DNA of 64,000 nt from Clostridia bacterium. GTDB taxonomy: Bacteria; Bacillota; Clostridia; UMGS1883. This document shows positions 1 through 56,004 of the stretch, piece by piece (the stretch's first letter is position 1; every line of letters starts with the position of its first letter). The stretch covers positions 77,483 to 141,482 of the forward strand of contig JAFUOO010000022.1 of NCBI GenBank assembly GCA_017472685.1, in the 5' to 3' direction. The position numbers and the translations under genes were made by a program. Below the pieces are notes generated by a model. It had not been told where the DNA came from. It saw nothing but the letters and a program-made list of their open reading frames with translations, and made no database searches.

Positions 1-1666
1 TTACTGCTACAGCTGTGTAGAGTTCTGTCCCGGATGCGGAGCTTGTAGTTCCTGTGCAGTTTTGTGCAGTGAATGTGGAAACTATTGCTCGGAATGTGCC
101 GATTTATGTGAGGAATGCGGAGGCTGTGACGAGTGCGTAGAGCTTTGCGAGGTCTGCGGATTGTATTGCAGTAAATGCTATTCCGAATGTCCTGTTTGCG
201 GAACTTCAATCGCTATCAGAATAGATAATGTTTCTCTGTCAGGTCTTACAATCCCCAAGGAGGGCAAGACACCCGATTTTACCCTGTCAAGTGATGAGTT
301 TAGTAAATACGCTTTGGTTGGCGGCAGCTATCAGCCCATTACCTGGTGGGAAGACGGCAGGGAAATGAGCAGTACAGACACTTTCAAGGCAGGCAAGAAC
401 TACTCTGTTGATATCTGGGTTTATGCAAAGAACGGTTATGTTTTTGCAGTTGACAAAACAGGTGTTAACTTTGAAACAAAGGTAACAGCTACAATCGACG
501 GTCAAATGGTTACTGTAAGAAAGGCTTATGAGCAGTCCCCATGGGAGGTAATTGAACTTAGTATTGACTTTGGTGAATGTAGTGATGAAGTTATTGAACA
601 CGTTATTATTAATGATGTAACAGCACCCCTTGCAGGTGAATACCCCACTTACTTTGCAACAGTAAAGGGCACAGGCTACAAGATTAATACAAATAAGAAT
701 AGCTATTATGATGCTTACTGGGTAGGTGAAAAGTGGTACTATATCAAAAACGGTATCGGCTGGTTTGATATGACCGACTTTGATTGGGTATACGAAAACG
801 AAACCTTTATCCCCGGACACGAATATCAGGTAAGAATTTACCTTGCAACCAATGACGGATACGAATTTTACTACAATCGTTATTATGAAACACAAGTTAC
901 AGGTACAGTAAACGGTAATGAGGCTATAAATCAAACCACCAGCTGGACTCCTTACGAACAGGAATTTGGATACAACTTTACTTGCAGCGAGCGTGTTATA
1001 AACCAGATTGTTATTGACGATTTGATTGTTCCCTACCAAGGCAGCCGTCCCGATTTGGAAATTACGGTTGACAAACCTAACCTTTATCAGCCCGACCCCA
1101 ATTACGGCTATGCATACTGCGGCGTAATCTGGTACGATGAGAACGGCGCGGCGTTAGGTCGCTATGAAGAATTTGAAGCAGGCAAGAAATACCGTGCAGA
1201 GGTAAAACTCGTGCCCACAAAGGTGGACGGAGTATATATGTCAACCTTCGATAGGAACATGACAGTTGTGAACGTAACACCAACAGGTAAGATGGGCGAG
1301 AACGTATCATATCCTACTGAGCTTTACGTTATGAACAGAGTTGCTTACGCATACTTTGACTACGAATGCCGTGAAAGCGAAGGTACAACAAAGTTAACCC
1401 TCAACGCAAATCCCTCAAGCGGAAGTGTAACTATAGCAGCTTCTCTTTGTACTGACATATGGCAACGTGACCCCATTGTAAGAATTGCCTTCTACGATAA
1501 GAACGATATAATGATTCATACAGAATTTGTTGAAGTGGGACAGGGCTTTGTAACAACCTTTGCACTTATTGATATACCTTCCGGTGCAGTAAGGTGTAAG
1601 GCAATGCTTCTGGACGGAAAAACAATTGAACCTTTCTATGAAGCACAGGTTGCGGAGATTGAGTGA
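1..1666 (+). CDS. 5'-truncated Cys-rich heptad-repeat (CxxCxxx) protein with a beta-rich C-terminal region; function unknown
   Basis: Frame is open from window position 2 (YCYSCVEFCPGCGACSSC...). It continues into at least 10 consecutive 7-residue units of the form C-x-[ED/K]-C-x-x-x, and the remainder is Y/T/N/V-rich. The stop is at 1664-1666. Confidence 0.5.
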   Translation, partial: YCYSCVEFCPGCGACSSCAVLCSECGNYCSECADLCEECGGCDECVELCEVCGLYCSKCYSECPVCGTSIAIRIDNVSLSGLTIPKEGKTPDFTLSSDEFSKYALVGGSYQPITWWEDGREMSSTDTFKAGKNYSVDIWVYAKNGYVFAVDKTGVNFETKVTATIDGQMVTVRKAYEQSPWEVIELSIDFGECSDEVIEHVIINDVTAPLAGEYPTYFATVKGTGYKINTNKNSYYDAYWVGEKWYYIKNGIGWFDMTDFDWVYENETFIPGHEYQVRIYLATNDGYEFYYNRYYETQVTGTVNGNEAINQTTSWTPYEQEFGYNFTCSERVINQIVIDDLIVPYQGSRPDLEITVDKPNLYQPDPNYGYAYCGVIWYDENGAALGRYEEFEAGKKYRAEVKLVPTKVDGVYMSTFDRNMTVVNVTPTGKMGENVSYPTELYVMNRVAYAYFDYECRESEGTTKLTLNANPSSGSVTIAASLCTDIWQRDPIVRIAFYDKNDIMIHTEFVEVGQGFVTTFALIDIPSGAVRCKAMLLDGKTIEPFYEAQVAEIE

Positions 1667-2969: not shown

Positions 2970-3530
2970 TTATTCATTATGAGCAGCTAAATAAGCGTTT
3001 CTGCCCTGTTCGTAGAGGTTGTTGCCTTCGCTGTCAATAATAACAACCAAGGGCATATCTTCTACGTAGAGCTTTCTGAGTGCTTCTGCACCCAAATCTT
3101 CAAATGCGATGAGTTCGGCACTCTTAATGCACTTAGCAAGGAGTGCGCCTGCACCGCCGATAGCACCAAAGTATACACCACTATGTTCCTTCATAGCTTC
3201 AACTACTTCGGGAAGACGGGCACCCTTACCAATCATGCCGCGTGCACCCACGGACATCATTGTAGGAGCGTAAGCGTCCATACGACCGCTTGTTGTAGGG
3301 CCTGCAGAGCCGATAACCTGACCGGGCTTAGCAGGAGTAGGACCTACATAGTAGATTGTAGCATCAGTAGGGTCAAATGGAAGAGGTTCGCCTTTTGCGA
3401 TAGATTCACACATTCTCTTGTGACCTGCGTCACGGGATGTGTAAATAGTACCTGTAAGAAGTACGCTGTCGCCAGCCTTAAGAGTTTTTGCAAGCTCTGC
3501 GGTTAAGGGGAGTGTAATTCTCTTTTCCAT
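2970..3530 (-). CDS. class I fumarate hydratase / Fe-S hydro-lyase, beta subunit (fumarate/tartrate family)
   Basis: 186 aa with the beta-subunit motifs GPTTSGRMD, GKGARLPEV and YFGAIGGAGALL. Its stop overlaps the start of the alpha subunit. Confidence 0.8.
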   Translation of the reverse strand: MEKRITLPLTAELAKTLKAGDSVLLTGTIYTSRDAGHKRMCESIAKGEPLPFDPTDATIYYVGPTPAKPGQVIGSAGPTTSGRMDAYAPTMMSVGARGMIGKGARLPEVVEAMKEHSGVYFGAIGGAGALLAKCIKSAELIAFEDLGAEALRKLYVEDMPLVVIIDSEGNNLYEQGRNAYLAAHNE

Positions 3531-4372
3531 TATATCACCTCCGACTTATGTCTTGTAACGTGGCAGTTGATGTTGATAGCACAGGGCATACCTGCGATAT
3601 GTGTGGGCAAAGTTTCGATATTTAAACCGATAGCTGTGCTCTTGCCGCCAAAGCCCTGAGGACCAATGCCTAATTTATTAACCTTTTCAAGCATTTCCTT
3701 TTCCAAATCTGCATAGAAGGGGTCGGGGTTGGGAACATCGATAGGACGCATAAGAGCCTTCTTAGCAAGGAGCGCCGCCTTATCAAATGTACCGCCGATG
3801 CCTACGCCGATTGTCATGGGAGGACAGGGGTTGGGACCTGCAATTTCAACTGTTTCAAGAATGAAATCCTTAATGCCCTGTAAGCCAGCTGAGGGCTTGA
3901 ACATACGGATTGCACTCATGTTTTCGCTACCGAAGCCCTTGGGACCTACAGTAACCTTAACACTTTCACCGTCAACGATTTCTGTATAAATCATTGCGGG
4001 AGTGTTGTCGCCTGTGTTACCACGGCGAACGGGGTCAGCTACAACGCTCTTTCTAAGATAGCCGTTAGCATAACCACGGCGAACACCTTCGTTGATGGCA
4101 TCTGTAAGGTTGCCGCCAACAAAATGAACGTCCTGACCGATTTCAAGAAATACGCAAGCCATACCTGTGTCCTGACAAATGGGAACACATTCTTTTTCTG
4201 CGATTTCATAGTTTGTGATAATATTGTCTAATACACCTTTTGCAATGTCCCAGTCTTCACAAGCACGGCAGGTTTTGATAGCATCCTGCACGTCCTTGGG
4301 GAGGAACTGGTTTGCTTCGATACAAAGCTTTTCAACTACATCTGTAATTGTCTGTACCTGAATTTCGCGCAT
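3530..4372 (-). CDS. class I fumarate hydratase / Fe-S hydro-lyase, alpha subunit
   Basis: 280 aa. CQDTGMACVF and GVGIGGTFDKAALLAK motifs are typical of the FumA/TtdA alpha subunit. Confidence 0.8.
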   Translation of the reverse strand: MREIQVQTITDVVEKLCIEANQFLPKDVQDAIKTCRACEDWDIAKGVLDNIITNYEIAEKECVPICQDTGMACVFLEIGQDVHFVGGNLTDAINEGVRRGYANGYLRKSVVADPVRRGNTGDNTPAMIYTEIVDGESVKVTVGPKGFGSENMSAIRMFKPSAGLQGIKDFILETVEIAGPNPCPPMTIGVGIGGTFDKAALLAKKALMRPIDVPNPDPFYADLEKEMLEKVNKLGIGPQGFGGKSTAIGLNIETLPTHIAGMPCAININCHVTRHKSEVI

Positions 4373-4428: not shown

Positions 4429-4459
4429 GGAAGGAACACGAGCAAACCCGTGTTCCTTT
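4429..4459 (-). terminator. hairpin terminator downstream of the flavoprotein gene (minus strand)
   Basis: gaaggaacacg-agcaaaccc-gtgttccttc with a U-rich tract on the minus-strand transcript. It lies between the frdA-like stop and the fumarase start. Confidence 0.5.
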
Positions 4460-4473
4460 CTATTCATTATATC

Positions 4474-6072
4474 TTATCTTTCATGTCTTGCGTACTTGGG
4501 CAATAAGAGGGGAGAAACCTGTTCGGATTCAAGCCCTGCAGCGGCAAGTTCGTCAGCATATGCCTTAACGTGGTCAAGGTTCATGTTGCCAAGTTCAACT
4601 TCTCTAGCCTTAGCTGCAGCTGCCTTACCTGCGTTACGACCGAATACGATAATGTCAAGAAGAGAATTACCCATGAGACGGTTTCTGCCGTGGATACCAC
4701 CAACAGCTTCACCTGCAACGAGGAGGTTGTCGATAGCCTTTGTAAAGCCGTCGCCACCAATCTCAAGACCACCGTTCTGGTAGTGGAGTGTGGGGTAAAC
4801 AAGGATGGGCTCTTTTCTCATATCGATACCGTAGTTAAGGTACATTCTGAGCATTGCAGGGATTCTCTTTTCGATTGTGCCTTCGCCGTGGAGGATTTCA
4901 ATCATGGGAGTATCGAGCCATACGCCACTTCCAAGAGGTGTTTCTACACCCTTGCCGTTAGCACATTCGCGGATAATAGCGGATGCGGAAACATCTCTAG
5001 TTTCAAGAGGATGAGCGTAAGCTTCGCCGTCTTTGTTAACAAGCATCGCACCGATGGAACGAACTTTTTCTGTAACGAGTGCACCGAAAATCTGTGCGGG
5101 GTATGCAACACCTGTGGGGTGGTACTGAATTGTATCCTGATAAAGAAGAGGAGCACCTGCACGGTAGCCGAGGATTAAGCCGTCAGCTGTTGCGCCATAG
5201 TGGTTAGAGGTGGGGAAGCCCTGGTAGTGAAGTCTGCCTGCACCACCTGTTGCGATGATAACAGTCTTTGCCTTTGCTACCATGTAATCGCCTGTTTCCA
5301 TGTTGAGGAGAACTGCACCTGCAACCTGACCCTTATCGTCCTTGATAAGTTCAACAGCGGATGTGAATTCAACAACGGGAATCTTACGGTTAATAACTTC
5401 GTCGCGGAGTGTACGCATGATTTCAGCACCGGAATAGTCCTTACAAGCATGCATTCTCTTTCTGGAAGTGCCGCCACCGTGTGTTGTAACCATTTCGCCG
5501 TCTTCGTTCTTGTCAAACATAACGCCCAGGTCATTTAACCAACGGATAGCATCGGGAGCTTCCATAACAAGTCTCTTCAAAAGCTCGGGACGAGCTGCAA
5601 AGTGACCGCCACCGAAAGCATCGATATAGTGCTGAACGGGGGAGTCGTTTGCCTTATCAGCTGCCTGGATACCGCCTTCAGCCATCATTGTGTTAGCGTC
5701 ACCAATACGGAGCTTTGTAACGATCATAACATCTGCGCCTGCTTCGTGAGCTTCGATAGCCGCACTGCTGCCTGCGCCGCCGCCACCGATAACAAGCACG
5801 TCTGTTTCGTAGTCAACCTTACTAAGGTCAACGTCAACGTCTAAAAGACGGCTGTTGGAGTGGAGAAGGTTACCGAGTTCTGTAGGAATTTTTTCGCCCT
5901 TGTTGGGACCAATTTTAATTTCAACAAAGCCTTCTGCCTTATAGTCGGGATGATATGATTTAAGAAGTTCATCCTTTTCTTCAGCAGTCATACGACGAGG
6001 TTCTGTCTTCATTCTTTCTGCTCTTGTTGCTTCTACCTTTTTGATAGATTCACGCATTGCTTCTGTAAACAT
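4474..6072 (-). CDS. fumarate reductase / succinate dehydrogenase family flavoprotein (FrdA-like); non-covalent FAD predicted; about 90-aa N-terminal extension
   Basis: GGGGAGSS dinucleotide fold, catalytic-region motif QYHPTG, and C-terminal capping domain. There is no His in the segment MMAEGGIQAA where the covalent-FAD His sits in SdhA. The first 90 residues precede the FAD-binding fold. Confidence 0.8.
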   Translation of the reverse strand: MFTEAMRESIKKVEATRAERMKTEPRRMTAEEKDELLKSYHPDYKAEGFVEIKIGPNKGEKIPTELGNLLHSNSRLLDVDVDLSKVDYETDVLVIGGGGAGSSAAIEAHEAGADVMIVTKLRIGDANTMMAEGGIQAADKANDSPVQHYIDAFGGGHFAARPELLKRLVMEAPDAIRWLNDLGVMFDKNEDGEMVTTHGGGTSRKRMHACKDYSGAEIMRTLRDEVINRKIPVVEFTSAVELIKDDKGQVAGAVLLNMETGDYMVAKAKTVIIATGGAGRLHYQGFPTSNHYGATADGLILGYRAGAPLLYQDTIQYHPTGVAYPAQIFGALVTEKVRSIGAMLVNKDGEAYAHPLETRDVSASAIIRECANGKGVETPLGSGVWLDTPMIEILHGEGTIEKRIPAMLRMYLNYGIDMRKEPILVYPTLHYQNGGLEIGGDGFTKAIDNLLVAGEAVGGIHGRNRLMGNSLLDIIVFGRNAGKAAAAKAREVELGNMNLDHVKAYADELAAAGLESEQVSPLLLPKYARHER

Positions 6073-6084
6073 ATTTATCCCTCC

Positions 6085-6759
6085 TTATTTCTCAATTTCT
6101 CTTGTGTTGTAAAGTTCTTTCATTTCAGTGATGGGCTTAGCCATAACCTGTTCGATAAGCTCATCGTACTGACCGTGGTTGATTTCATCAACTCTTACCT
6201 TAAGGTGCTCTGTTTCAGGAGCAATGTACTTACCTGTAAGGCGTCTTGCAAGAAGACCAACCATGGGATGAGTGATGCCTGCAGGACAACGAACAGAGCA
6301 GCAGCCGCAGCCTACGCAGTCGAAGGATTCTTCTGCGCACTTTTCATATTCGCCACGCTGTGCGTAAGCGATGTACTGCATAACGTTCAAGTCCTGTGTA
6401 CAAGCATTTGTACAAGCGTTACAGCCGATACAGCTGTAAATTTCGGGATAAAGCTCCATCATAATCTGCTGAGTGGGCTTAATCTCCTGAATATCATAAG
6501 TTCTCTTGTCCTGGGGATAGAAGGGGATAGTAGCGATGTACATGCCTTCCTGCACCTGTGTCTGGCACGCAAGACAAGTCTTTAATTCGTTCTGACCTTT
6601 AATACGGTAAATAGTAGCACAAGCACCGCAGAAACCGTGACGGCAGCCACAACCGCGTGTAAGTGTGTAACCTGCGTATTCCATAGCTGTCATGATTGTC
6701 AAATCGGCAGGCACCTTGTACTGTTTACCGAAGAAATATACATTAACCATGTTTTCCAT
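6085..6759 (-). CDS. Fe-S subunit of fumarate reductase/succinate dehydrogenase type (2Fe-2S plus two Cys clusters), short soluble form
   Basis: 224 aa. CGCRHGFCGAC...C resembles a plant-ferredoxin 2Fe-2S motif, and CIGCNACTNAC and CVGCGCCSVRCP are cubane motifs. It sits immediately upstream of the flavoprotein gene. No membrane-anchor genes are present. Confidence 0.7.
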   Translation of the reverse strand: MENMVNVYFFGKQYKVPADLTIMTAMEYAGYTLTRGCGCRHGFCGACATIYRIKGQNELKTCLACQTQVQEGMYIATIPFYPQDKRTYDIQEIKPTQQIMMELYPEIYSCIGCNACTNACTQDLNVMQYIAYAQRGEYEKCAEESFDCVGCGCCSVRCPAGITHPMVGLLARRLTGKYIAPETEHLKVRVDEINHGQYDELIEQVMAKPITEMKELYNTREIEK

Positions 6760-6822: not shown

Positions 6823-7680
6823 TTAATACTCTGCCGGGATTTCGTCGAGCTCGTCGCAGTGGAATACGGGACCGTCCTTACAAACGTACTTACTACCTAT
6901 ATTACATCTGCCGCACTTGCCAACGCCGCACTTCATACGAAGCTCAAGTGTTGTGATAATCTGCTTCTTGTCAAAGCCCATTTCCTGTAAGCCCTGAAGT
7001 ACGAACTTAATCATAATCGGAGGACCGCAGATAAGAGCAACCTTGTTTGTATCAAAGCCGATTTCCTTAAGATAGGAAGGAACAAAGCCAACGTGACCGT
7101 CCCAGCCTTCCTGTTCGCGGTCGATTGTGAGGTACACATTTACGTTGGGAGCCTTCATCCATACTTCCTGGATTTCCTTGAGCTGAACGAGGTCGTCAGC
7201 ACTTCTTGAGCCATAGAGAATGTCAACTGTGCCGTAGTTTTCACGGTTGTCTAAAACATAGTTGATAACACTACGAAGAGGAGCAAGACCGATACCACCT
7301 GCGATGAAGAGAAGGTTTTTGCCTTTAAGCTCTGTTTCAACGGGGAAGTTGTTACCGTAAGGTCCTCTTACTGTGATTTCTTCGCCTACTTCCATAGCAT
7401 GGAGATAGTCTGTAAGAACACCACACTTTTTAATGGAAAATTCCTGGAATTCCTTATTTGTGGGGGAGGAAGTAATAGAAAACATTGCTTCACCCACACC
7501 GGGAACAGACACCATAGCGCACTGACCGGGCATGTGTTCAAAGAGTTTGCTTCCGTCGGGAGCTACCACGCGGAAGGTTTTAACGTCGGGAGTTTCCTGA
7601 CGAATATCTGTTACAACGCCAACCTTAGGAATGAGTGTATCCTCATAAAAGCTGTCGTGATTGCATGTGCATTCGCTCAT
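6823..7680 (-). CDS. FAD/NAD(P)-binding oxidoreductase with C-terminal 2Fe-2S (FlxA / AsrB / HydG-like)
   Basis: 285 aa. It has a ferredoxin-NADP-reductase-like fold (GGIGLAPL) and a C-terminal CGVGKCGRC...C motif. Its stop overlaps the upstream gene. Confidence 0.7.
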   Translation of the reverse strand: MSECTCNHDSFYEDTLIPKVGVVTDIRQETPDVKTFRVVAPDGSKLFEHMPGQCAMVSVPGVGEAMFSITSSPTNKEFQEFSIKKCGVLTDYLHAMEVGEEITVRGPYGNNFPVETELKGKNLLFIAGGIGLAPLRSVINYVLDNRENYGTVDILYGSRSADDLVQLKEIQEVWMKAPNVNVYLTIDREQEGWDGHVGFVPSYLKEIGFDTNKVALICGPPIMIKFVLQGLQEMGFDKKQIITTLELRMKCGVGKCGRCNIGSKYVCKDGPVFHCDELDEIPAEY

Positions 7681-8711
7681 TATCTGTTACCTCCCTTTTC
7701 AAAAGCTTTAATAACCTTTACAATGTTTAAGCCTATGGGGCACTTGTCAACGCAACGTCCGCAGCCTACGCAGGAGTACATACCGTCGTTATTCTGAGGG
7801 AAGTATACAAGCTTGTGCATAAATCTCTGGCGATAACGCTGCATCTGGCTTGTACGGTTGTTACCATGAGCCATCATTGTAAAGTCTGAATACATACAGG
7901 AGTCCCAGCAGCGATAGCGCTGTACGCCATTACCTGTGTTGTAGTCCTTAATATCGTAGCACTGGCATGTGGGGCACACGAAGGTACATGTACCGCAAGC
8001 AAGACAGGGCTTGTAGAGTTCTTCCCAGATGGGAGAATTGAACTTGTCAAGTAATACTGCGTCCTTACCCCAGCCTTCGAGAGAAAGACTTGAATAGGGA
8101 AGACGGGAAACGATTTCCTTAATGGAAGCCTTTTGGGCTTCTACCTTTGCTTCGTCAGCATCTGTAAGAAGAGAGGCAACCTGCTTTGTGAGCTTTTCGC
8201 CCTTCTCTGTAACTGCATTCCAGTACATTTCGTCGCCAATCATATATACCACTACATCGCCTTCGGGCTGGCTAGCATCAATGCCGAAAACGTTACAGAA
8301 GCAAGCTTCCTCGGGCTGAGAGCATGCGAGAGATACGATAATGCCGTGCTCTCTTCTTGCCTTGTAGTAGGAGTCAACAGGGTCAACAAGGAAAACCTTA
8401 TCAAGCACTGCTAAACCTCTTACATCACAAGCCTTCATGCCGAATACTACAAAATCCTTATTCTGTAACTCTTCGGGAGTAATGGAAAGCTTCTTGCCAT
8501 TTCTCTTACAGGAGTATAAAGTTTCGCTCTGGGGGAAGAATGCATCTTTAGGAGACTTAACAGTTTTTAATGTGTCAAGGTCCACAAGCTGCTCTTCGTC
8601 CCATGCTGCAAAGTTAACGCTGCCGTTAATATTACAGGGAACGTAAAGTTCGTTTGCGTCCGCAATGCAGGAGAATAATGCGGACAGATTTTCTTTATTT
8701 ATCTTGTACAT
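7680..8711 (-). CDS. 4Fe-4S protein of AsrA / HydB / FlxB type
   Basis: 343 aa with CLACGTCTFVCPTC and CVGCGRCVDKCP motifs. It is paired with the AsrB-like gene. Confidence 0.65.
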   Translation of the reverse strand: MYKINKENLSALFSCIADANELYVPCNINGSVNFAAWDEEQLVDLDTLKTVKSPKDAFFPQSETLYSCKRNGKKLSITPEELQNKDFVVFGMKACDVRGLAVLDKVFLVDPVDSYYKARREHGIIVSLACSQPEEACFCNVFGIDASQPEGDVVVYMIGDEMYWNAVTEKGEKLTKQVASLLTDADEAKVEAQKASIKEIVSRLPYSSLSLEGWGKDAVLLDKFNSPIWEELYKPCLACGTCTFVCPTCQCYDIKDYNTGNGVQRYRCWDSCMYSDFTMMAHGNNRTSQMQRYRQRFMHKLVYFPQNNDGMYSCVGCGRCVDKCPIGLNIVKVIKAFEKGGNR

Positions 8712-8714
8712 ACA

Positions 8715-9692
8715 TTATCCCCTTTCTGTAACAATACTGGGCTCAACATCATCAAAAGTGAATGCTGTGAGCGGGCCTTTTGTTTCGCTATCTTCGCCTG
8801 CCTGGAACTCGCCGTAGAATGTGTCAATATCCTTGATGAACTTGCGGTTGAAAAGGTGAAGCGGAATGCCCTGAGGACAAACACGGCTGCATTCACCGCA
8901 GTCAGTACATCTGCCTGCAACATGGAAGGCACGGATAATGTGGAACATCTTTTCTTCGAAGGAGTCAACGTTTGCCTTTGTTGCTTCGTCAAACTTATTT
9001 GAGTCAAATACGCACTTACGGCAGGAGCAAGCAGGGCATACGTTACGGCATGCGTTACAACGGATACACTTACTAAGCTCCTTCTTGAAAAATTCAAACT
9101 TTTCCATGGGGCTCATTGCTTCAATTTTTTCGATTTCGGCAAAGCGTTCCGCATCCTTTGTATCACGGCTGTCGAGCATTACTTCATCACAAATCTGATG
9201 CTCTTTGCCCTTACAAACGTGGCAGCGTTCAAGCATAGCGTCGTTGTAGCTTACTTCTTTATCACCGTAAAGTGTTTTAACTGTGAGTGTTTCGCAGTCG
9301 GAGTTAATGTCGGCACCGCTAACTTCAAGGATACCCTTAACACCCATAGCCTTAATAGCCTCAATATCAAGCTTACCCTTACAGCCAACGCCGATGATGT
9401 AAGCCTTTTCGCGGTCAACTCTGTGTTCCTTTATAAGCTGGTTGAAGCTGTAGGTATCGCAGGGCTTTAAGAACACAAGTGTCTTGCCGTCCTTCTTACT
9501 TGCTTCAATCATGTACTTTGAAAGGTTTGCACCACAGAAGCCGTCATAGACAAAGTCATTGTCTAAGCTTTCTGCAGTTTCAAAATAGGAGGGTTCGGGG
9601 TTGAAGCCTAAATCGCCTTTTTTCCAACCAAGGACACGAGCAACTTCACCCGATGCCAAAAGTTCTTTTGCGCGGTCGATTAATCTTTGCAT
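8715..9692 (-). CDS. F420-hydrogenase-beta-like (FrhB/FlxC-type) Fe-S flavoprotein
   Basis: 325 aa with CIRCNACRNVCPAC and CTDCGECSRVCP motifs, and the typical Hdr-cluster context. Confidence 0.6.
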   Translation of the reverse strand: MQRLIDRAKELLASGEVARVLGWKKGDLGFNPEPSYFETAESLDNDFVYDGFCGANLSKYMIEASKKDGKTLVFLKPCDTYSFNQLIKEHRVDREKAYIIGVGCKGKLDIEAIKAMGVKGILEVSGADINSDCETLTVKTLYGDKEVSYNDAMLERCHVCKGKEHQICDEVMLDSRDTKDAERFAEIEKIEAMSPMEKFEFFKKELSKCIRCNACRNVCPACSCRKCVFDSNKFDEATKANVDSFEEKMFHIIRAFHVAGRCTDCGECSRVCPQGIPLHLFNRKFIKDIDTFYGEFQAGEDSETKGPLTAFTFDDVEPSIVTERG

Positions 9693-10117
9693 CTCAAATC
9701 CCCCAATCTTACGTTTTCGCCAAGTGAACGGATTTTGTCAACAAATTCGTTCATTGTTGTGGAGAACTTAACGCCTTCTGCAGCAGATACCCATTCAACA
9801 CGTGTTCTGCCGTTCTCAATGCCTAAGTATTCAAGCATGGAGAAGAGGAGTGTCATTCTTCTTCTTGCGTAGTAGTTACCTGTGGAATAGTGACAGTCAC
9901 CGGGGTGGCAACCACACATGATTACGCCGTCAGCGCCCTTTTCAAATGCACGGAGAATAAACATGGGGTTTACTCGGCAGGAGCAGGGAACACGGATAAT
10001 CTTAACGTCGGCGGGGTACTGAAGACGGCTGCTGCCTGCAAGGTCAGCGCCTGCATAACTACACCAGTTACAGCAAAATGCCACTATTTTAGGCTTAAAT
10101 TCATTGTTCATCGACAT
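9680..10117 (-). CDS. mvhD: MvhD / FlxD-like methyl-viologen-reducing hydrogenase delta-subunit homolog
   Basis: 145 aa. FCCNWCSY...CSCRV...CGCHPGDCHY is the MvhD signature. It overlaps the hdrA stop. Confidence 0.8.
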   Translation of the reverse strand: MSMNNEFKPKIVAFCCNWCSYAGADLAGSSRLQYPADVKIIRVPCSCRVNPMFILRAFEKGADGVIMCGCHPGDCHYSTGNYYARRRMTLLFSMLEYLGIENGRTRVEWVSAAEGVKFSTTMNEFVDKIRSLGENVRLGDLRCKD

Positions 10118-12126
10118 ATTGCATCCACCTCCGCTATAATCTGTCTGTTACTAAAGCCCTGAAGGTCCATAGCACCGGAGGGACAAGCAACCGTACAAGC
10201 ACCGCAGCCCTGGCAGAGAGCGTTGTTAACACGAGCAACGCGTCTGTCTTCGCGGATACCGTGGTCGTTAACCTGTACAACCTCGTAGCTGATAGCACCG
10301 TAGGGACATACATTTGCACAAACGGAGCAACCGTTACAAAGAAGCTCGTCGCTCTTTGCTGTGCAGGGGTTGGTCAAAAGCTTATCCTTTGCAAGAAGAC
10401 CGATTGCCTTAACCGCTGCCGCACCTGCCTGTGCAACTGTTTCGGGAATATCCTTGGGTCCCTGACATACGCCGGAGAGGAAAATACCTGCTGTGGGCGA
10501 TTCAACGGGACGAAGCTTTGCGTGAGATTCTGTAAGGAAGTTGTTTGTGTCAATGCTTGCTGTGAGCATTGTTGCAATACCTCTTACACTTGCTTCGGGC
10601 TCAATAGCTGTTGCAAGAACAACCATGTCTGCCTTCATTTTAATCTGCTTGTTGTCAAGAAGGTCACTTGCCTGTACAAGAAGTGAGCCATCGGGCTGGG
10701 GAGCAACCTTACCAACCTGACCCTTGATGTAGTTTACGCCGTATTCTTCAACAGCTCTGCGGTAGAACTCATCAAAGTTCTTACCGGGAGTACGAACGTC
10801 GATATAGAATACAGTAACCTTAACATCCGGATACTTGTCACGGATGAGCATTGCGTGCTTAGCTGTGTACATACAGCAAATCTTTGAGCAGTAGCTCTTG
10901 CCGCGGTTGTCATTACAACGACTTCCTACGCACTGTACAAATACAATGTGCTCGGGGTGCTTGCCGTCACTAAGACGCTCAAGGTGACCCTTTGTAGGAC
11001 CTGCCGCGTTCATAACTCTTTCCAATTCCAAAGATGTGATAACATCCTTGGACTGGTTATAAGCGTATTCGTCGTAGTTATCAAGCTTTATTGTGTCAAA
11101 GCCTGTTGCAACAACGATTGCGCCGTACTTTTCTGTTACGATTTCGTCTACCTGGTCGTAATTGATAGCGCCTGCCTGACAAACCTTTTCACAAAGACCG
11201 CACTTGCCTGTCTTGAACTTGATGCAGGCATCACGGTCAATTACGGGAACATTGGGAATAGCCTGAGCAAAGGGAGTGTAGATAGCACTGCGATTGTTAA
11301 GACCACGGTTGAATTCGCTCGGTGTCTTCTTGGAAGGACACTTTTCCTGACAAACACCGCAGCCTGTACATTTGTCCATATCTACGCTTCTTGCTTTCTT
11401 TCTTATATCTACTGTGAAATCACCAACGAAGCCTGTTACCTTGTCAACCTCGCTGTATGTGTAGATGTTAATCTTTTCGTGAGCTGCAGCCTCAACCATT
11501 TTAGGTGTGAGGATACAAGCGGAACAGTCAAGTGTGGGGAAGGTCTTATCAAGCTGGCTCATTCTGCCGCCGATGGAAGGAGTCTTCTCAACAATGTCAA
11601 CCTCGTAGCCTGCATCTGCAATGTCGAGAGCTGTCTGGATACCTGCAATACCGCCACCGATAACAAGTGCACGCTTTGTAACGCGGCTTTCACCGGGGAA
11701 CAAGGGCGCATTGAGGTTAACCTTTGCAATAGCTGCTCTGGCAAGAATAACTGCCTTTTCGGTAGCTTCTTCCATATCCTTATGAATCCAGGAGCAGTGC
11801 TCACGGATGTTTGCAATTTCAACCATGTAGGGGTTAAGACCTGCTCTTTCAGCAGCCTTACGGAATGTACCCTCGTGCATTCTGGGAGAACAGGAGCAAA
11901 CTACGATACCGGAAAGATTCTTTTCCTTAACAGCATCCAATATTTTTGCCTGACCTGCCTCGGAGCACATGTACTGATAATCCTCGCAATGTACAACACT
12001 GGGCTCCTGTGATATAATTTCTACAACCTTTTTAACGTCAACTGTGGCTGCAATGTTACTGCCGCAGTGACATACAAATACACCAATTCTCTGCATTTTG
12101 TCACCTCCTGTAACGTCTGAACGCAC
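10108..12126 (-). CDS. hdrA: heterodisulfide reductase subunit A-like (HdrA; FAD, multiple 4Fe-4S)
   Basis: 672 aa. N-terminal VFVCHCGSNI, FAD fold VIGGGIAGIQTA, and several CxxCxxCxxxCP ferredoxin motifs. Confidence 0.85.
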   Translation of the reverse strand: MRSDVTGGDKMQRIGVFVCHCGSNIAATVDVKKVVEIISQEPSVVHCEDYQYMCSEAGQAKILDAVKEKNLSGIVVCSCSPRMHEGTFRKAAERAGLNPYMVEIANIREHCSWIHKDMEEATEKAVILARAAIAKVNLNAPLFPGESRVTKRALVIGGGIAGIQTALDIADAGYEVDIVEKTPSIGGRMSQLDKTFPTLDCSACILTPKMVEAAAHEKINIYTYSEVDKVTGFVGDFTVDIRKKARSVDMDKCTGCGVCQEKCPSKKTPSEFNRGLNNRSAIYTPFAQAIPNVPVIDRDACIKFKTGKCGLCEKVCQAGAINYDQVDEIVTEKYGAIVVATGFDTIKLDNYDEYAYNQSKDVITSLELERVMNAAGPTKGHLERLSDGKHPEHIVFVQCVGSRCNDNRGKSYCSKICCMYTAKHAMLIRDKYPDVKVTVFYIDVRTPGKNFDEFYRRAVEEYGVNYIKGQVGKVAPQPDGSLLVQASDLLDNKQIKMKADMVVLATAIEPEASVRGIATMLTASIDTNNFLTESHAKLRPVESPTAGIFLSGVCQGPKDIPETVAQAGAAAVKAIGLLAKDKLLTNPCTAKSDELLCNGCSVCANVCPYGAISYEVVQVNDHGIREDRRVARVNNALCQGCGACTVACPSGAMDLQGFSNRQIIAEVDAICR

Positions 12127-12490
12127 TTACCAGAAGCTGCTGAGGAAGCTCCTCGTCCAAAAGTTCGGGAATTTCGTCAGCCTTAAGGTAATCTGCGCCT
12201 TTTTCGCGGACAACAAGCTGTCTTGCCGCATCAATGAGCTTGCCGGGCTGTACACTTCTGGGACAACGCTCAATACAAGCAAAGCAGGAAAGACACTTCC
12301 AGAGAGACTTGGAAGAAGCTAAAGCTTCAATGTCGTCGTTTACTACATAAGAAACAAACTGATGAGGCTTAATGTCCATTTCATCAAAAGCGGGGCAGGT
12401 TGCAGAGCACTTACCGCACTTCATACATTTAAGAGGATTAACGCCGCTGATTTCTTTTATCTTGTCAGCTTTATTTGCACCATGACTCAT
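12101..12490 (-). CDS. hdrC: heterodisulfide reductase subunit C-like (two 4Fe-4S)
   Basis: 129 aa with CMKCGKCSATCP and CLSCFACIERCP motifs. Confidence 0.75.
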   Translation of the reverse strand: MSHGANKADKIKEISGVNPLKCMKCGKCSATCPAFDEMDIKPHQFVSYVVNDDIEALASSKSLWKCLSCFACIERCPRSVQPGKLIDAARQLVVREKGADYLKADEIPELLDEELPQQLLVSAFRRYRR

Positions 12491-13284
12491 TCTGCATCCT
12501 CCTTAACGCCCAAAGCTTCAGCAAGAAGCTCTGTGAAATAATATACGGGAACATCGCCTACTGTGTTCTTGTTTAAGTTATACATACAAAGAGGGCATGC
12601 AGTAATAAGCATTTCAGCACCGAAGCCCTTTGCGCTTTCTACAATTGTGTCACACATGGATTTAGCCATGTCCTTTTCTTTCAAGGAAATGTAACCGCCG
12701 CAGCATTCGTTGCGGTAGGGGTATACGACAGGTGTTGCACCAATTGCCTTGATAAAGTCTTCTATAATAGTGGGGTTTTCGGGATTGTCAAAAGCAAGGA
12801 TTTCGCCCGGGCGGAGAAGAAGGCAACCGTAGTATGCACCAATCTTCTTGCCTGTTAAGGGGTTTGTAACCATTTTCTTAAGGTTATCAAAGCCAACACG
12901 GTCGCGGAGAACTTCCAAAAAGTGAAGAACGTTTGTTTCACCCTTGTAAGGCTCCGGGAGCTTCATGTAGTTGTTGGCACGACTCTGAATGTCGGGTACA
13001 TTTTTCATGTCGTCGTTGACACGCTTTATAACGTGATGACACGCAGAACAGAGAGTAACCAGATCCTGACCCTTTTCCTTTGCTTCATTGAGAACACGAA
13101 CGGAAGAAAGCTTTGTTGCTATTTCATCACTGCCAAGGGGATACACGCCGCCGCAGCACTGCCACTGGGTAACTTCTTCAAGCTCGAAGCCGAGAGCTTT
13201 GGCAGATGCCTTTGCGTATGCATCAAGGTCCTTAGCCTTAGTTCTCAAAGTACAACCGGGATAATATGTGTACTTCATAGTCAA
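12487..13284 (-). CDS. hdrB: heterodisulfide reductase subunit B-like (two CCG domains)
   Basis: 265 aa with YPGC...CCGG...C and a second ...CCGG... cysteine-rich CCG motif. Confidence 0.8.
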   Translation of the reverse strand: MTMKYTYYPGCTLRTKAKDLDAYAKASAKALGFELEEVTQWQCCGGVYPLGSDEIATKLSSVRVLNEAKEKGQDLVTLCSACHHVIKRVNDDMKNVPDIQSRANNYMKLPEPYKGETNVLHFLEVLRDRVGFDNLKKMVTNPLTGKKIGAYYGCLLLRPGEILAFDNPENPTIIEDFIKAIGATPVVYPYRNECCGGYISLKEKDMAKSMCDTIVESAKGFGAEMLITACPLCMYNLNKNTVGDVPVYYFTELLAEALGVKEDAE

Positions 13285-13323: not shown

Positions 13324-14289
13324 TTATTCAGCCTCGGGCATGGACATATCGATCTGAGCGATAATATCCTTAAGCACCTGAGCAGATGCCTTAAGCTTGT
13401 CAATTTCACTGTTCTTAAGGTCCATGGGAATCTTGCCCTGGATACCGTTGGGACCAACAAGTGTAAGTGTGGAAAGACATACATCGTCAATGCCGTATTC
13501 GCCATGCATCATGGAGGATACTGTAGCAACGGAGTCACTTGCTGCTGTTACGATAGAACAAATCTGGCAAACAGAAGCAGATACTGCGTAGAAGGTAGCA
13601 CCCTTAGAAGCAATGATTTCGCCGCCGGACTTCTGAACGTATGTGAGCATAGCTTCCTTGTTGAGGGGAGTGAGCTTCTTGCCCATGCGTTCTGCACATT
13701 CGTAGTAGTCTTCCAATGCTACGCCTGCAACGTCAGCACAGGACCAGGGAACGAAGGAAGAGTCACCGTGTTCGCCGTATACATAAGCATGAATGTTTTT
13801 CTGAGCAACCTGAAGCTGTTCGGACAAGCCCTGCTTGAGACGTGCTGTGTCAAGGATTGTACCGGAGCCGATGATCTGGTTTTCGGGAAGACCGGAAATC
13901 TTTGTGAACACATATGTCATAATGTCAACGGGGTTAGAAACGATGATGTAAAGAGCCTTGGGAGCATACTTTACAATTTCGGGAGTGATACTCTTTAAGA
14001 TGTTAACGTTTGTCTGTGTGAGCTCGAGACGTGTCTGACCGGGCTTACGAGCAAGACCGGATGTGATGATAACGATGTCGGAATCAACAGCGTCTTCATA
14101 TTCGCCTGCTGTAACCTTAATGGGGTTACGGAAGCAAGTACCCTGGATAATGTCCATTACTTCGCCCTTTGCCTTTGTCTTGTTGATATCAATCATCACG
14201 ATTTCGGATGCGATATCACCCTGACTGAGTGTGTAAGCGATTGTGGAACCTACGCTACCTGCGCCAATGATAGTGATTTTGCTGCTCAT
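13324..14289 (-). CDS. mdh: LDH-like malate dehydrogenase (L-lactate/malate dehydrogenase family; Arg at the substrate-specificity position)
   Basis: IIGAGSVGS Rossmann fold and catalytic GEHGDS. The specificity segment reads GLARKPGQTR, which has Arg where lactate dehydrogenases have Gln. It is the first gene of the hdr/flx/frd cluster. Confidence 0.7.
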   Translation of the reverse strand: MSSKITIIGAGSVGSTIAYTLSQGDIASEIVMIDINKTKAKGEVMDIIQGTCFRNPIKVTAGEYEDAVDSDIVIITSGLARKPGQTRLELTQTNVNILKSITPEIVKYAPKALYIIVSNPVDIMTYVFTKISGLPENQIIGSGTILDTARLKQGLSEQLQVAQKNIHAYVYGEHGDSSFVPWSCADVAGVALEDYYECAERMGKKLTPLNKEAMLTYVQKSGGEIIASKGATFYAVSASVCQICSIVTAASDSVATVSSMMHGEYGIDDVCLSTLTLVGPNGIQGKIPMDLKNSEIDKLKASAQVLKDIIAQIDMSMPEAE

Positions 14290-16054: not shown

Positions 16055-16342
16055 TCAGCGATATAAATTCCTTGCGGAATTTGCGATATTCCCCTTTGGG
16101 GAGCGATATGTTGCAAGCAACGTGATATGTCCTGCGGGACGTTGGGAATTTATATTATATCGAGTTTGTAGGGACCGGCGTCCTCGACGGTCCGAAAAAA
16201 CATATCGAATTTACGAAGTAAATATATCGAGCAAACGAAGTCTGCATATCGACAAACAAGCTGTCTTTTTATATAAAAAGCTTGAAATTCGGGGTTTTGT
16301 GTGCTATAATGGCAAGGATTTGGAAAAAGAAAGGTGAATAAA

Positions 16343-17005
16343 ATGACATTTTTGGAAAAGTTTGAAGAGCTTAAGTCAATCTGCAACGGTGCAGATATTA
16401 AGTTCGACCGTGACTTTGCGGTACAGATCAACATGACAGACGAAAACTGTGGCGGTACTTACTACATTGAACACCGCGCAGGCGTGTTGAACGTTGAGCC
16501 CTATGACTATCATGACAACAATGCTGTTATGACAGCTACTTCCGATATTCTTGAAAAAATGCTTACAGGTAAAATCGATTCCGTTGCGGCATTTTTTGAA
16601 GGCAAGTTCACAATTGACGGCGATGTTGAGGCAGTTCTGCAGCTTACAAAAATTTCAGATGCAGTAAAGGCAATGAGAAAAGCTGAAGAAAAGGCAAAGA
16701 AAGAAGCTGAAAAGGCAGCAAAAGAAGCTAAGAAGGCTGAAGAAAAAGCAAAGAAGGAAGCTGAAAAGAAAGCTAAAGCAGAGGCTGAAAAGAAAGCAAA
16801 GGCTGAAGCTGAGAAGAAGGCTAAAGCAGAAGCTAAAGCTGAGGCTGAGAAAAAGGCAGCTGAAGAAGCTAAAAAGGCTGAAGCAAAGAAGGCTCCCGTA
16901 AAAAAGACTGCCGCAAAGAAAACCGCTGAAAAGGCAGAAAAGAAGCCCGCTGCAAAGAAGAGTGCAGCAAAGAAAGCCGACAAGCAGATGAAGCTTGACA
17001 TATAA
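16343..17005 (+). CDS. SCP2 sterol-carrier-like domain fused to an Ala/Lys/Glu-rich repeat tail
   Basis: The N-terminal approx. 110 aa (GKFTIDGDVEAV...) resemble SCP2. The C-terminal approx. 105 aa consist of AEKKAKAEAEKK repeats. An ATG with ribosome-binding site AAAGGTG is preferred over the upstream GTG. Confidence 0.65.
   Translation: MTFLEKFEELKSICNGADIKFDRDFAVQINMTDENCGGTYYIEHRAGVLNVEPYDYHDNNAVMTATSDILEKMLTGKIDSVAAFFEGKFTIDGDVEAVLQLTKISDAVKAMRKAEEKAKKEAEKAAKEAKKAEEKAKKEAEKKAKAEAEKKAKAEAEKKAKAEAKAEAEKKAAEEAKKAEAKKAPVKKTAAKKTAEKAEKKPAAKKSAAKKADKQMKLDI
16675..16870 (+). repeat. in-frame tandem approx. 24-nt DNA repeats encoding the (AEAEKKAK)n tail
   Basis: gctgaaaagaaagctaaagcagag units are repeated at least 4 times. 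Confidence 0.7.
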
Positions 17006-17078: not shown

Positions 17079-18035
17079 TTATTCTGTTTTGTTTGTGAAG
17101 TGAAGTATAATGTGCGTTAAAACGTATGATGCAATAATTACAGCTATATCAACAGGGGCGAGGATGATGTGGGGAATACCATCAAAGAAAAATCCTTGAC
17201 CGAAGCGGTATAAATGCCCTGACAAAAGAAACATTTCACCTATATACATTACCAGGGTTATAATTGACGAAACGATTGACGGAATAATAACTGAAAAGAT
17301 TGTTTTCCTGCCGATAAGAAACGAGCCCGTGTAAATGCCCATGGTAATACCAAAAACAATAAAAAACAGTATCATCAGAAATGCAGATAATGGCGAAACA
17401 ACAATATCACCTGTTCGGAAAAAGGCGGTAAAGCACGCAAAGATACAAAGAGCAAGGAAGAAAACTGCCGAAACTGACTGGAGGATAAGAGGCTTTAAGC
17501 GGCGATGGTCTTTGTGTTTTATCATTTGATAAAAGCCGTAGAAGCAGTTTAAGAATGCTAATATAAGCACGATTGAGATTATGTAAAAATGTATTTTGAA
17601 GGTGGGGGAATAGTCCCCTATGAAAAAGTCGACGACACGTTGTGTTTCGGTGGTTGTCTGTGTTTCAGATATATAGGGCGAAATGCACATAAATGATTGC
17701 CAGCCTTCGATTGTTGTTGTAACAACTGTTTCGGTTACTGTTGCAACGAGCATATTCTCAAAAATAAGTTCTGCCACAAAGAAAATAGCCGAAGAAAAGG
17801 CAGAAGAAAACAAAAGCGCGTATTTTTTAAAAATGTGAATAATTAAAGGCATAAGAAGCACGCCGACAATTATTGCTATACTTATGGGAGTATAAGGAAT
17901 AACATATTTAGGGTAATTTTGCTGCAGCACATAGCCGTCACGTATTATGTCACAAATTACCTGCGTACCCATCTTCAACGGATAAAAGGATGCTAAAAGA
18001 ACACCTATAACAGACAAAAAATAATACTTTTTCAT
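17079..18035 (-). CDS. polytopic membrane protein, function unknown
   Basis: 318 aa and highly hydrophobic, with multiple predicted transmembrane segments. Confidence 0.45.
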   Translation of the reverse strand: MKKYYFLSVIGVLLASFYPLKMGTQVICDIIRDGYVLQQNYPKYVIPYTPISIAIIVGVLLMPLIIHIFKKYALLFSSAFSSAIFFVAELIFENMLVATVTETVVTTTIEGWQSFMCISPYISETQTTTETQRVVDFFIGDYSPTFKIHFYIISIVLILAFLNCFYGFYQMIKHKDHRRLKPLILQSVSAVFFLALCIFACFTAFFRTGDIVVSPLSAFLMILFFIVFGITMGIYTGSFLIGRKTIFSVIIPSIVSSIITLVMYIGEMFLLSGHLYRFGQGFFFDGIPHIILAPVDIAVIIASYVLTHIILHFTNKTE

Positions 18036-18046
18036 TTGTAAACCTC

Positions 18047-18997
18047 CTATAGCGCATTAGTTAAAAGTGTGTAAAAAATCATGCATGAAAGCAAAACAAA
18101 ACATATTAGCGAAAACAGCGAAAGCCTTTTATAGGACAAAATATTTTTTATACGTGACGATAAATTTGCACCGCCGAAAGGAGAGGAAAACGCCGCTTTT
18201 CTCTCGAGAATATTTAAAAGAGAAAGAGCATAATCCTTCTTCTCTTTAAGGCTTAAATTTTTAACAACAGCTTCATCACAGGAGTGTTCCATATCCTGCA
18301 AAAAGCATTTCAAAAAGAGCCATGCAAAGGGGTTAAACCAATGAATGACAGCTGTTATAATTGCCAATATCCGCCGGAGATTGTCCATACGCTTTATGTG
18401 AATGCTTTCATGAGCAATAATGTAGGTAAGGTCAGCATCTCTAAAAGCTACGGGAATAATAATTTTAGGCTTAACAATGCCGTAAACGGCAGGGGAAGGT
18501 GTGCTTTCACAGGTGTAAATATTGTCTTTAAAATGAATGGCAGTTTTGTTGTTAAGAATTGTTTTTATGTAAAGACAAAGAAAAACAATAAAAAGGAACA
18601 GCACAACGCATAGCCATATGATTGCCGAAGTATTGAAAATGCCCTCCAACACATTTGTTTTGTAAGTTATGGGAAAGTAGCTTTCGGCTGCGCCCACAGA
18701 ATTCATCATGGACATTGACGGCGAATATGGATAATAAGAAGGAGCGCTGTATTCATATGCAACGGTGGTTTTAATTGAAAGCTCACTGAGCAAATTCATA
18801 AATGAATACTTGCTGTCAAGACCTATGGGCACCAAAAAACGAATAAACGGAATTATCCACAAAGCATAAATCATTCTTCGGGGAATTCTTTTTATATACC
18901 CAAGAAGCAAAATAATAATTCCCGTAAATGTGCCCATAATGCTCATGTTAAATACCCAATAGAATATTTCGCCGAGCATACTGTCACCTCTTTTCAA
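18047..18997 (-). CDS. BlaR1/MecR1-like M56 family membrane metallopeptidase (no sensor domain)
   Basis: 316 aa with a HESIH zinc motif (IIAHESIHIKRMD) and transmembrane segments. It overlaps the blaI-like stop. Confidence 0.7.
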   Translation of the reverse strand: MKRGDSMLGEIFYWVFNMSIMGTFTGIIILLLGYIKRIPRRMIYALWIIPFIRFLVPIGLDSKYSFMNLLSELSIKTTVAYEYSAPSYYPYSPSMSMMNSVGAAESYFPITYKTNVLEGIFNTSAIIWLCVVLFLFIVFLCLYIKTILNNKTAIHFKDNIYTCESTPSPAVYGIVKPKIIIPVAFRDADLTYIIAHESIHIKRMDNLRRILAIITAVIHWFNPFAWLFLKCFLQDMEHSCDEAVVKNLSLKEKKDYALSLLNILERKAAFSSPFGGANLSSRIKNILSYKRLSLFSLICFVLLSCMIFYTLLTNAL

Positions 18998-52305: not shown

Positions 52306-52307
52306 AA

Positions 52308-54359: not shown

Positions 54360-54370
54360 AGGAGTAAAAA

Positions 54371-54931: not shown

Positions 54932-54945
54932 AATTCCACAAAACA

Positions 54946-54978
54946 AAAGACAGCACCTTTTGGTACTGTCTTTTGTTT
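54946..54978 (+). terminator. rho-independent terminator (imperfect stem)
   Basis: aaagacagcaccttttggtactgtcttttgtttt. Confidence 0.65.
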
Positions 54979-54999
54979 TGTGGCGGAGAAGGTGGGATT
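54972..54999 (-). repeat. attachment-site-like direct repeat copy 1 (tRNA 3'-end core plus flank)
   Basis: tttgttttgtggcggagaaggtgggatt is repeated at 55074-55102. Confidence 0.6.
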
Positions 55000-55073
55000 T
55001 ACCCGTTCGGGCATAAACTTCGAATCCTTTCATCATCCAAAAAACAAAAAGCACTATCTTTCGATAATGCTCT

Positions 55074-55643: not shown

Positions 55644-55646
55644 TTT

Positions 55647-55997: not shown

Positions 55998-56004
55998 GAA
56001 AACC

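Follow-up and report, generated by a model that had tools for sequence, protein, structure and literature searches.

Two described systems stand closest to the locus considered here. In Pseudoclostridium thermosuccinogenes, genes for fumarate hydratase, Flx–Hdr and fumarate reductase make up a co-transcribed and co-regulated 'succinate operon', and fumarate reduction was proposed to be coupled to ferredoxin reduction via Flx–Hdr, a prediction backed by transcript data (PMC7282089, which cites a 2019 preprint by Koendjbiharie and van Kranenburg for the succinate operon scheme). In tubeworm symbionts and Thioflavicoccus mobilis, gene clusters of the reverse tricarboxylic acid (rTCA) cycle have tfrAB interspersed with flxABCD–hdrABC, and a joint complex was suggested (PMC6315080). 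Here we analyse a 64,000-nucleotide stretch of DNA from a Clostridia bacterium (GenBank assembly GCA_017472685.1, contig JAFUOO010000022.1, positions 77,483 to 141,482; hereafter the window) that carries a minus-strand operon of 12 genes with tight intergenic gaps, mdh–hdrBCA–flxDCBA–FeS–flavoprotein–fumAB. Our subject is the pair formed by its flavoprotein subunit (4474–6072, minus strand; 532 amino acids (aa), with FAD-binding and capping domains) and the neighbouring iron–sulfur (Fe–S) subunit (6085–6759, minus strand; 224 aa). We propose, with a probability of roughly 60%, that this pair reduces fumarate as the high-potential arm of an electron-bifurcating FlxABCD–HdrABC complex, which would be driven by NADH and coupled to ferredoxin reduction. 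A fumarate reductase linked to Flx–Hdr has already been proposed in the literature; what is modestly new is the architecture of the flavoprotein clade and its modular use.

First, a functional link between the pair and the Hdr/Flx genes is strongly supported by identical gene order. A scan of species-representative genomes gave 80 loci at 70–90% identity, and when gene order was compared as far as the contigs reach, the arrangement [mdh]–hdrB–hdrC–hdrA–flxD–flxC–flxB–flxA–FeS–flavo–[fumAB] was the same in 80 of 80 species-level genomes. The loci come from gut and rumen Clostridia belonging to the Lachnospiraceae, Oscillospiraceae, Acutalibacteraceae and Christensenellaceae, with Sporofaciens musculi, Christensenella tenuis, Fusicatenibacter faecihominis and Ohessyouella blattaphilus as cultured carriers.

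Second, the active site of the flavoprotein is of the fumarate/succinate type, because its full set of catalytic residues is conserved. FAD_binding_2 (PF00890; E = 2e-68), the only Pfam domain matched, spans residues 91–471, and the motifs GGGGAG, MMAEGGIQAA and QYHPTG occupy residues 96–101, 129–138 and 316–321, respectively. In a HMMER alignment, H242, T254, E255, R286, H354 and R399 of Escherichia coli SdhA correspond to H318, T334, E335, R359, H430 and R465, such that six of six catalytic or substrate-binding residues are kept; SdhA R258 maps onto R338. The mapped catalytic residues do not vary in a family alignment of 63 sequences and are kept in approximately 98% or more of about 250 relatives that share the N-terminal extension described below. 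The same alignment pairs His45 of SdhA (1nek_A), the residue that carries covalent FAD (in 'SHT'), with Asn127 of the flavoprotein (in 'ANT'; codon 5692–5694, minus strand), and the FAD is predicted to be non-covalent because of this replacement. A sequence-only reading of the window had already pointed to the QYHPTG motif and to the missing histidine, and realignment leaves both observations intact: asparagine fills the column in 242 of 242 complete extension-bearing relatives and in 271 of 271 extension-bearing sequences that cover it.

AlphaFold2 (AF2), run on the 532-aa chain with the 63-sequence alignment, gave a model with a mean predicted local distance difference test (pLDDT) score of 87.9 and a predicted template modelling (pTM) score of 0.91, and its top Foldseek match was E. 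coli FrdA (1kf6_A; E = 2e-31), over around 445 columns that take in the FAD and capping domains only. The top NCBIfam model is methanogen TfrA (NF004900) at 343 bits, compared with 278–281 bits for the SdhA/FrdA models. The suggestion that the protein is closer to methanogen thiol:fumarate reductase than to a respiratory complex II therefore stands as far as these scores go but stops short of equivalence, as the TfrA equivalog cutoff is 718 bits, the match runs from position 6 to 425 of a 546-position profile and leaves the last 120 or so unmatched, and the Fe–S partner has no CCG domain. The cutoff of TIGR01812 (SdhA/FrdA) is likewise missed (278 versus 567 bits), and the NadB models, at 256–258 bits, all remain below theirs (TIGR00551, 256 versus 452.75). 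With these curated thresholds failed and two hallmarks of complex II flavoproteins missing, the protein should not be filed as TfrA, SdhA/FrdA or NadB. Existing annotations of the family read only 'FAD-binding protein' or 'FAD-dependent oxidoreductase', which is why metabolic reconstructions miss it.

Third, both ends of the flavoprotein depart from the known families. At the C terminus, Succ_DH_flav_C (PF02910) was not matched in the Pfam scan, and only 42 residues (491–532; 4477–4602, minus strand) follow the FAD domain, in place of the helical C-terminal domain of about 120–150 aa found in SdhA, FrdA and TfrA. AF2 predicts one helix and short strands in this tail, and its conserved residues are L499, H501, P521, LLP (523–525) and Y527. 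Every member examined that has an adjacent or fused Fe–S partner carries the tail, and both of those examined without one lack it; on the strength of this co-occurrence, seen in few cases, it is a better candidate than the N-terminal extension for contacting the Fe–S subunit.

At the N terminus, around 88 residues (1–88; 5809–6072, minus strand) precede Rossmann strand 1. The sequence-only reading had described some 90 residues ahead of GGGGAG that it could not assign to a domain, starting from the upstream methionine, and both the extension and its start are upheld. A Shine–Dalgarno sequence, GGAGG, lies 8 nt upstream of the ATG at 6072 and none precedes the other in-frame ATGs; conservation among homologues begins at residue 2; and the only other start codon near the FAD fold, a GTG at residue 92, falls inside Rossmann strand 1. 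An internal start was rejected on these grounds, with no conserved internal start found. Pfam yielded no credible match to the extension (one sub-threshold hit at chance level, E = 0.15), and the PDB yielded none, whether it was searched with the single sequence or with a 20-sequence profile. We also considered that the extension might be a relocated C-terminal domain, and rejected this after hhalign gave a probability of 0.7% against a profile of the SdhA/TfrA C-terminal domain. The AF2 model has pLDDT values of 86–97 for each ten-residue block of the extension and places helices at residues 4–20 and 30–40, a short β-hairpin with strands at 49–51 and 61–63, and a helix at 64–70; given this confidence and secondary structure, the extension is predicted to be folded rather than a floppy tether. 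Its mean pairwise identity is 0.44, compared with 0.69 for the core, and it contains the conserved motifs HPDY (41–44) and G55-x-N-K-G59...P63-x-E-L; in homologues as distant as 24% identity, H41, P42, G55 and G59 never vary and R17, L37 and E65 hardly do.

The idea that this extension docks the Hdr/Flx module, also raised from the sequence alone, is not supported. The extension occurs with no Hdr/Flx genes nearby in a gammaproteobacterial pair partnered by a NuoF-like protein, in a bare flavoprotein–FeS pair from a Prochlorococcus-like genome, in FeS–flavoprotein fusions flanked by cell-envelope genes, and in two members without an adjacent Fe–S gene, all of which argues that it is not an Hdr/Flx-specific adaptor, even if it may still dock the module in this one complex. 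The notion that it instead tracks the Fe–S partner was partly rejected: two extension-bearing members that lack the C-terminal tail have no Fe–S neighbour, and neither do two short relatives without the extension. The extension is, rather, a folded hallmark of the flavoprotein clade.

Fourth, the Fe–S subunit has the cluster ligands of an electron wire and acts together with the flavoprotein. Pfam identifies a 2Fe–2S domain (Fer2_4) and a 4Fe–4S dicluster domain (Fer4_7/8). Cys39/44/47/65 fit one [2Fe–2S] cluster, and Cys109/112/115/119 and Cys147/150/153/157, each in a CxxCxxCxxxC arrangement, fit two [4Fe–4S] clusters; the presence of two such full motifs leads us to expect two [4Fe–4S] clusters and not the [3Fe–4S] cluster of classical complex II. 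None of these 12 cysteines varies among the sequences from Clostridia, fusion proteins and Chloroflexi. The subunit resembles SdhB and the N-terminal part of TfrB weakly, matching the TfrB model over positions 19–85 only (NCBIfam), and a CCG domain is absent from it by both Pfam and NCBIfam. The earlier description of this partner as short is apt by comparison with TfrB (a 488-position profile) and less so by comparison with classical SdhB/FrdB, which at approximately 240 aa are only slightly longer. The Fe–S and flavoprotein open reading frames share one reading frame and lie 12 nt apart, separated by TAA and four codons (6073–6087), such that loss of one stop codon there would give the fusion type found in nature (P0123 and P0271–P0274). 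The existence of these five natural FeS–flavoprotein fusion proteins shows that the two subunits act as one unit. As had also been expected from the sequence, the enzyme looks soluble: no membrane-anchor gene was found in the operon and no transmembrane-like segment in any of its 12 proteins (maximum Kyte–Doolittle 19-residue mean, 1.47).

A homologue search covering 1.84 billion representative sequences placed the pair in a wider family, in which some Fe–S homologue clusters contain thousands of metagenomic members. The C-terminal domain is missing in all 242 complete extension-bearing sequences, and relatives that have this domain and lack the extension carry a histidine at the covalent-FAD position in 18 of 34 cases. 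Judged by sequence, three linked traits thus appear to set the clade apart: the extension, asparagine in place of the covalent histidine and no C-terminal domain. Beyond the Clostridia loci above, the clade reaches Chloroflexi/Anaerolineae, Defluviitaleaceae, Megasphaera, marine Gammaproteobacteria and a Prochlorococcus genome.

The neighbours of the pair change across this range. In two Chloroflexi loci (L083 and L085), Hdr, MvhD and FlxC-like genes adjoin the FeS–flavoprotein pair and FlxA/B are missing, which suggests that the electron-donor module is exchangeable. In a metagenome-assembled genome of a marine gammaproteobacterium (L088, 9366–12891), a NuoF-like protein composed of Complex1_51K and NADH_4Fe-4S is encoded after a 212-aa Fe–S subunit and an extension-bearing flavoprotein of 545 aa (46% identity), with no Hdr/Flx or CCG protein at the locus. 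By its domains this trio looks like a three-subunit soluble NADH:fumarate reductase, and its combination of the pair with a NuoF-like module and no CCG protein indicates that the Fe–S subunit can take electrons directly from a protein partner.

Two observations concern other relatives. A small hydrophobic PQ-loop-like protein of 94–110 aa is encoded beside several family members (L081, 12153–12479; L093, 6731–7015; L086, 7290–7607; L087, 9548–9880), spanning two subgroups, the FeS–flavoprotein fusions and an Fe–S-less member; two copies that were compared are 45% identical (E = 1e-27). It has no homologue in the 64-kb window and might function either as a membrane partner or in transport. The closest extension-less relatives, which are about 410 aa long and have neither the C-terminal domain nor an Fe–S partner, lie in polysaccharide-synthesis clusters between ATP-grasp and Lyase_1 (fumarase/aspartase family) genes (L090, 4749–8704; L091, 4789–8740), and probably have a different, biosynthetic role rather than being fumarate reductases.

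The remaining genes of the operon, all on the minus strand, encode complete Flx and Hdr modules and the enzymes that flank fumarate. Immediately upstream of the Fe–S gene, FlxA (6823–7680; Pfam FAD_binding_6, NAD_binding_1 and DHODB_Fe-S_bind) is an NAD(P)H-binding FAD/[2Fe–2S] protein that resembles the gamma subunits of hydrogenases and sulfhydrogenases in NCBIfam and is the predicted NADH entry point. It is preceded by the Fe–S proteins FlxB (7680–8711; Pfam Fer4_22, and like sulfhydrogenase beta and AsrA in NCBIfam) and FlxC (8715–9692; Pfam Fer4_8 and related models) and by FlxD, an MvhD-like [2Fe–2S] electron-transfer protein (9680–10117; Pfam FlpD, E = 1e-55), so that the Flx module is complete at the level of Pfam and NCBIfam domains. 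HdrA (10108–12126; NCBIfam HdrA2, 786 bits) is homologous to the flavoprotein at which methanogen heterodisulfide reductase bifurcates electrons and is full-length, matching 5odc_A, the structurally characterized bifurcating HdrA, across residues 12–670 (E = 8e-203); its translation probably begins at the ATG of residue 11. HdrC (12101–12490) is a subunit with two [4Fe–4S] clusters by Pfam and NCBIfam. HdrB (12487–13284) has two complete CCG motifs (Pfam CCG twice, with the cysteine motifs read from the translation) and scores about equally as SdhE of 8-methylmenaquinol:fumarate reductase (MFR), the CCG subunit of type E fumarate reductases (5.6e-40), and as HdrB (9e-39) in NCBIfam; HdrB chains in the PDB match it at E values of 1e-30 to 1e-35. 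It is the only HdrB encoded, and no gene for a DsrC-like or other thiol carrier was found in the operon.

The first gene of the operon (13324–14289; Pfam Ldh_1_N/C) encodes a lactate dehydrogenase (LDH)-like protein that exceeds the NCBIfam L-LDH cutoffs. Its substrate loop, GLARKPGQTR, has arginine at the position of LDH Gln102, the residue known to set specificity, with arginine there directing the enzyme to oxaloacetate. Despite the L-LDH cutoffs passed, this arginine makes the product probably a malate dehydrogenase, and automatic annotation is likely to mislabel the gene. At the 3′ end, the alpha (3530–4372; Pfam Fumerase, E = 1e-116) and beta (2970–3530; Pfam Fumerase_C, E = 3e-59) subunits of a class I fumarate hydratase are followed by a hairpin with a 20-bp stem and T-runs (2920–2966), 3′ of fumB, that is likely to be a bidirectional terminator closing the operon. 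The 101 nt that separate the flavoprotein gene from fumA contain a second hairpin with a 12-bp stem (4429–4460), which may act as an internal attenuator or as a site of RNA processing.

From the gene content, motifs, synteny and loss of the covalent histidine observed above, we infer the following physical assembly, electron path and bifurcation. The FeS–flavoprotein pair would form the catalytic core of a fumarate reductase that is cytoplasmic and independent of quinones, in which the flavoprotein would hold non-covalent FAD and reduce fumarate at an SdhA/FrdA-type site, with the 224-aa subunit serving as a wire of one [2Fe–2S] and two [4Fe–4S] clusters. NADH would be oxidized at FlxA, and electrons would pass through FlxB, FlxC and FlxD to the bifurcating FAD of HdrA. 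From there, one electron would travel uphill to ferredoxin and the other downhill through HdrC, HdrB and the Fe–S subunit to the FAD of the flavoprotein and on to fumarate, which the malate dehydrogenase and fumarase of the operon would supply from oxaloacetate. The net reaction would be 2 NADH + fumarate + oxidized ferredoxin → 2 NAD+ + succinate + reduced ferredoxin. With standard potentials of −320 mV for NAD, about +30 mV for fumarate and about −450 mV for ferredoxin, such a coupled reaction would be exergonic.

Direct wiring of this kind is favoured for several reasons: complete Hdr and Flx modules are present in the operon while the Fe–S subunit has no CCG domain of its own; type E enzymes provide a precedent for a CCG subunit working with an SdhAB core; and the gammaproteobacterial pair has only a NuoF-like module. 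Other observations pull the other way. Literature searches turned up no biochemical characterization of any family member, and bifurcation by bacterial Flx–Hdr is itself still a proposal. The Fe–S subunit may dock either the HdrB/C or the Flx side, and a structural model of an artificially joined FeS–flavoprotein chain (pTM 0.70) had low confidence in the Fe–S part, with pLDDT values of 40–80. HdrB retains a complete disulfide-reducing cluster site, which is compatible with a thiol intermediate. Finally, the fumarase is downstream only in loci above about 75% identity and is not adjacent in the 70–75% group. We give even odds to a broader reading, in which the locus represents a new class of bifurcating enzyme, an NADH-dependent fumarate:ferredoxin oxidoreductase of quinone-free gut Clostridia, drawn from a modular clade of soluble fumarate reductases that had not been described before and whose inputs vary by phylum between Hdr–Flx, Hdr–MvhD, NuoF-like or none.

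The alternative that survives best, although we consider it unlikely, is a two-step thiol scheme as in methanogens, in which a disulfide, either soluble or on a protein, would be reduced by Flx–Hdr at HdrB, and the thiol would be re-oxidized by the pair acting as a thiol:fumarate reductase. TfrA as the top NCBIfam model and the two intact CCG motifs of HdrB are what such a scheme would call for, and published descriptions send electrons to 'ferredoxin (and thiols)' (PMC7282089). Yet the CCG domain, which is the thiol-oxidizing site of TfrB, is the very part that the Fe–S subunit lacks; the operon offers a single HdrB and no DsrC-like or other thiol-carrier gene; and the gammaproteobacterial pair works with a NuoF-like partner from a locus that encodes no CCG protein. 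Further, bacteria, Clostridia included, are not known to make coenzymes M and B.

That same gammaproteobacterial FeS–flavoprotein–NuoF-like unit looks like a plain NADH:fumarate reductase, and, with flxA lying immediately upstream of the Fe–S gene, the window could be read in the same way: FlxA would feed the Fe–S subunit directly, without bifurcation, and Hdr would have some other role. We regard this as quite unlikely, as all nine Hdr, Flx and Frd genes stay clustered in an unchanged order across the 80 genomes, and the Chloroflexi loci retain Hdr, MvhD and the FlxC-like protein while lacking FlxA/B.

It is very unlikely, in our assessment, that the flavoprotein acts on another substrate, be it L-aspartate, as in NadB, or another enoate. 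The scores of the NadB models (256–258 bits) nearly equal those of the SdhA models, and the closest extension-less relatives, in their polysaccharide gene clusters, are probably not fumarate reductases, but every NadB model falls below its cutoff, NadB does not typically have a dedicated Fe–S partner, the fumarate-binding histidine and arginine set is complete, and the operon encodes fumarase and malate dehydrogenase. Operation in reverse, with succinate and reduced ferredoxin together reducing NAD+ (confurcation), would be open to any flavin-based bifurcating enzyme in principle, but is highly improbable here, given that the operon carries enzymes of the reductive branch, that the hosts are gut fermenters, and that E. 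coli FrdA His44 mutants, in which the covalent FAD link is lost, reportedly keep fumarate reduction while succinate oxidation is abolished.

If the pair is indeed the high-potential arm of a bifurcating Flx–Hdr complex, many Clostridia of the gut and rumen, including Lachnospiraceae, Oscillospiraceae and Christensenellaceae, would conserve energy when they form succinate, without quinones or membranes, in the form of reduced ferredoxin, in a manner analogous to crotonyl-CoA or caffeyl-CoA reduction. The reduced ferredoxin would then drive Rnf or hydrogenase, amounting to a cytoplasmic form of 'fumarate respiration'. Models of gut fermentation, and of cross-feeding on hydrogen and succinate, would have to adopt different redox and ATP balances, and fumarate would join the short list of high-potential acceptors in flavin-based bifurcation.

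Elsewhere in the window, we noted several features apart from the operon. A 534-aa protein (62–1666, plus strand) has dense N-terminal CxxC pairs (CSECGNYCSECADLCEECGGCDECVELCEVCGLYCSKCYSECPVC) followed by repeated β-rich segments, with a weak, sub-threshold CBM_4_9 match only. A 223-aa protein (16334–17005, plus strand) joins an SCP2-like N-terminal domain to a long, repetitive Lys/Ala/Glu tail (AEKKAKAEAEKKAKAE...). On the minus strand at 17079–19337, the genes for a 117-aa repressor of the BlaI/MecI type and a 316-aa M56 peptidase sensor of the BlaR1 type overlap and are followed by the gene for a multi-pass membrane protein of 318 aa that Pfam did not match. Finally, the region 50833–63929, in which two adjacent GmrSD_N (DUF262) proteins, ATPase_2/DUF234, an AAA_15/AAA_21 ATPase, and DUF6017 and DUF6076 proteins are encoded, with a tyrosine integrase at the window end and a lower G+C content (about 0.36–0.40), looks like a defence or mobile island.

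Among known systems, the P. thermosuccinogenes operon is the nearest by gene content, likewise combining seven Flx/Hdr genes with a fumarase and a fumarate reductase of two genes (PMC7282089); the operon analysed here differs in having its fumarase at the 3′ end and an additional LDH-like malate dehydrogenase. The tubeworm symbiont clusters share a TfrA-like soluble fumarate reductase that is genetically linked to Flx–Hdr (PMC6315080), but they and that of T. mobilis belong to autotrophic Gammaproteobacteria in an rTCA context. Methanothermobacter TfrAB (NF004900 and NF004898) provides the best-scoring flavoprotein family and, like the pair, is soluble with motifs for one [2Fe–2S] and two [4Fe–4S] clusters. 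By contrast with TfrA, the window flavoprotein scores far below the equivalog cutoff, lacks the last 120 or so profile positions and has an 88-aa extension; by contrast with TfrB, the CCG half is encoded apart as HdrB, giving proteins of 224 and 265 aa where the TfrB profile has 488 positions. With E. coli FrdABCD (1kf6) and complex II, the enzyme shares the FAD and capping fold and identical catalytic residues, but it has no covalent-FAD histidine, C-terminal domain, membrane anchors or [3Fe–4S] signature, and it carries the extension. In the type E succinate:quinone reductases and MFR (SdhABE), as proposed here, an HdrB-like CCG protein works directly with an SdhAB-type core, although that CCG subunit links to a membrane quinone, whereas HdrB of the window belongs to a soluble HdrABC. 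Finally, HdrABC–MvhAGD of methanogens (5odc) and FlxABCD–HdrABC of Desulfovibrio share HdrA, HdrB, HdrC and MvhD/FlxD homologues and the same bifurcation logic with the system we propose, in which the acceptor would be neither a heterodisulfide nor DsrC but fumarate, reached through the FrdAB-like pair.

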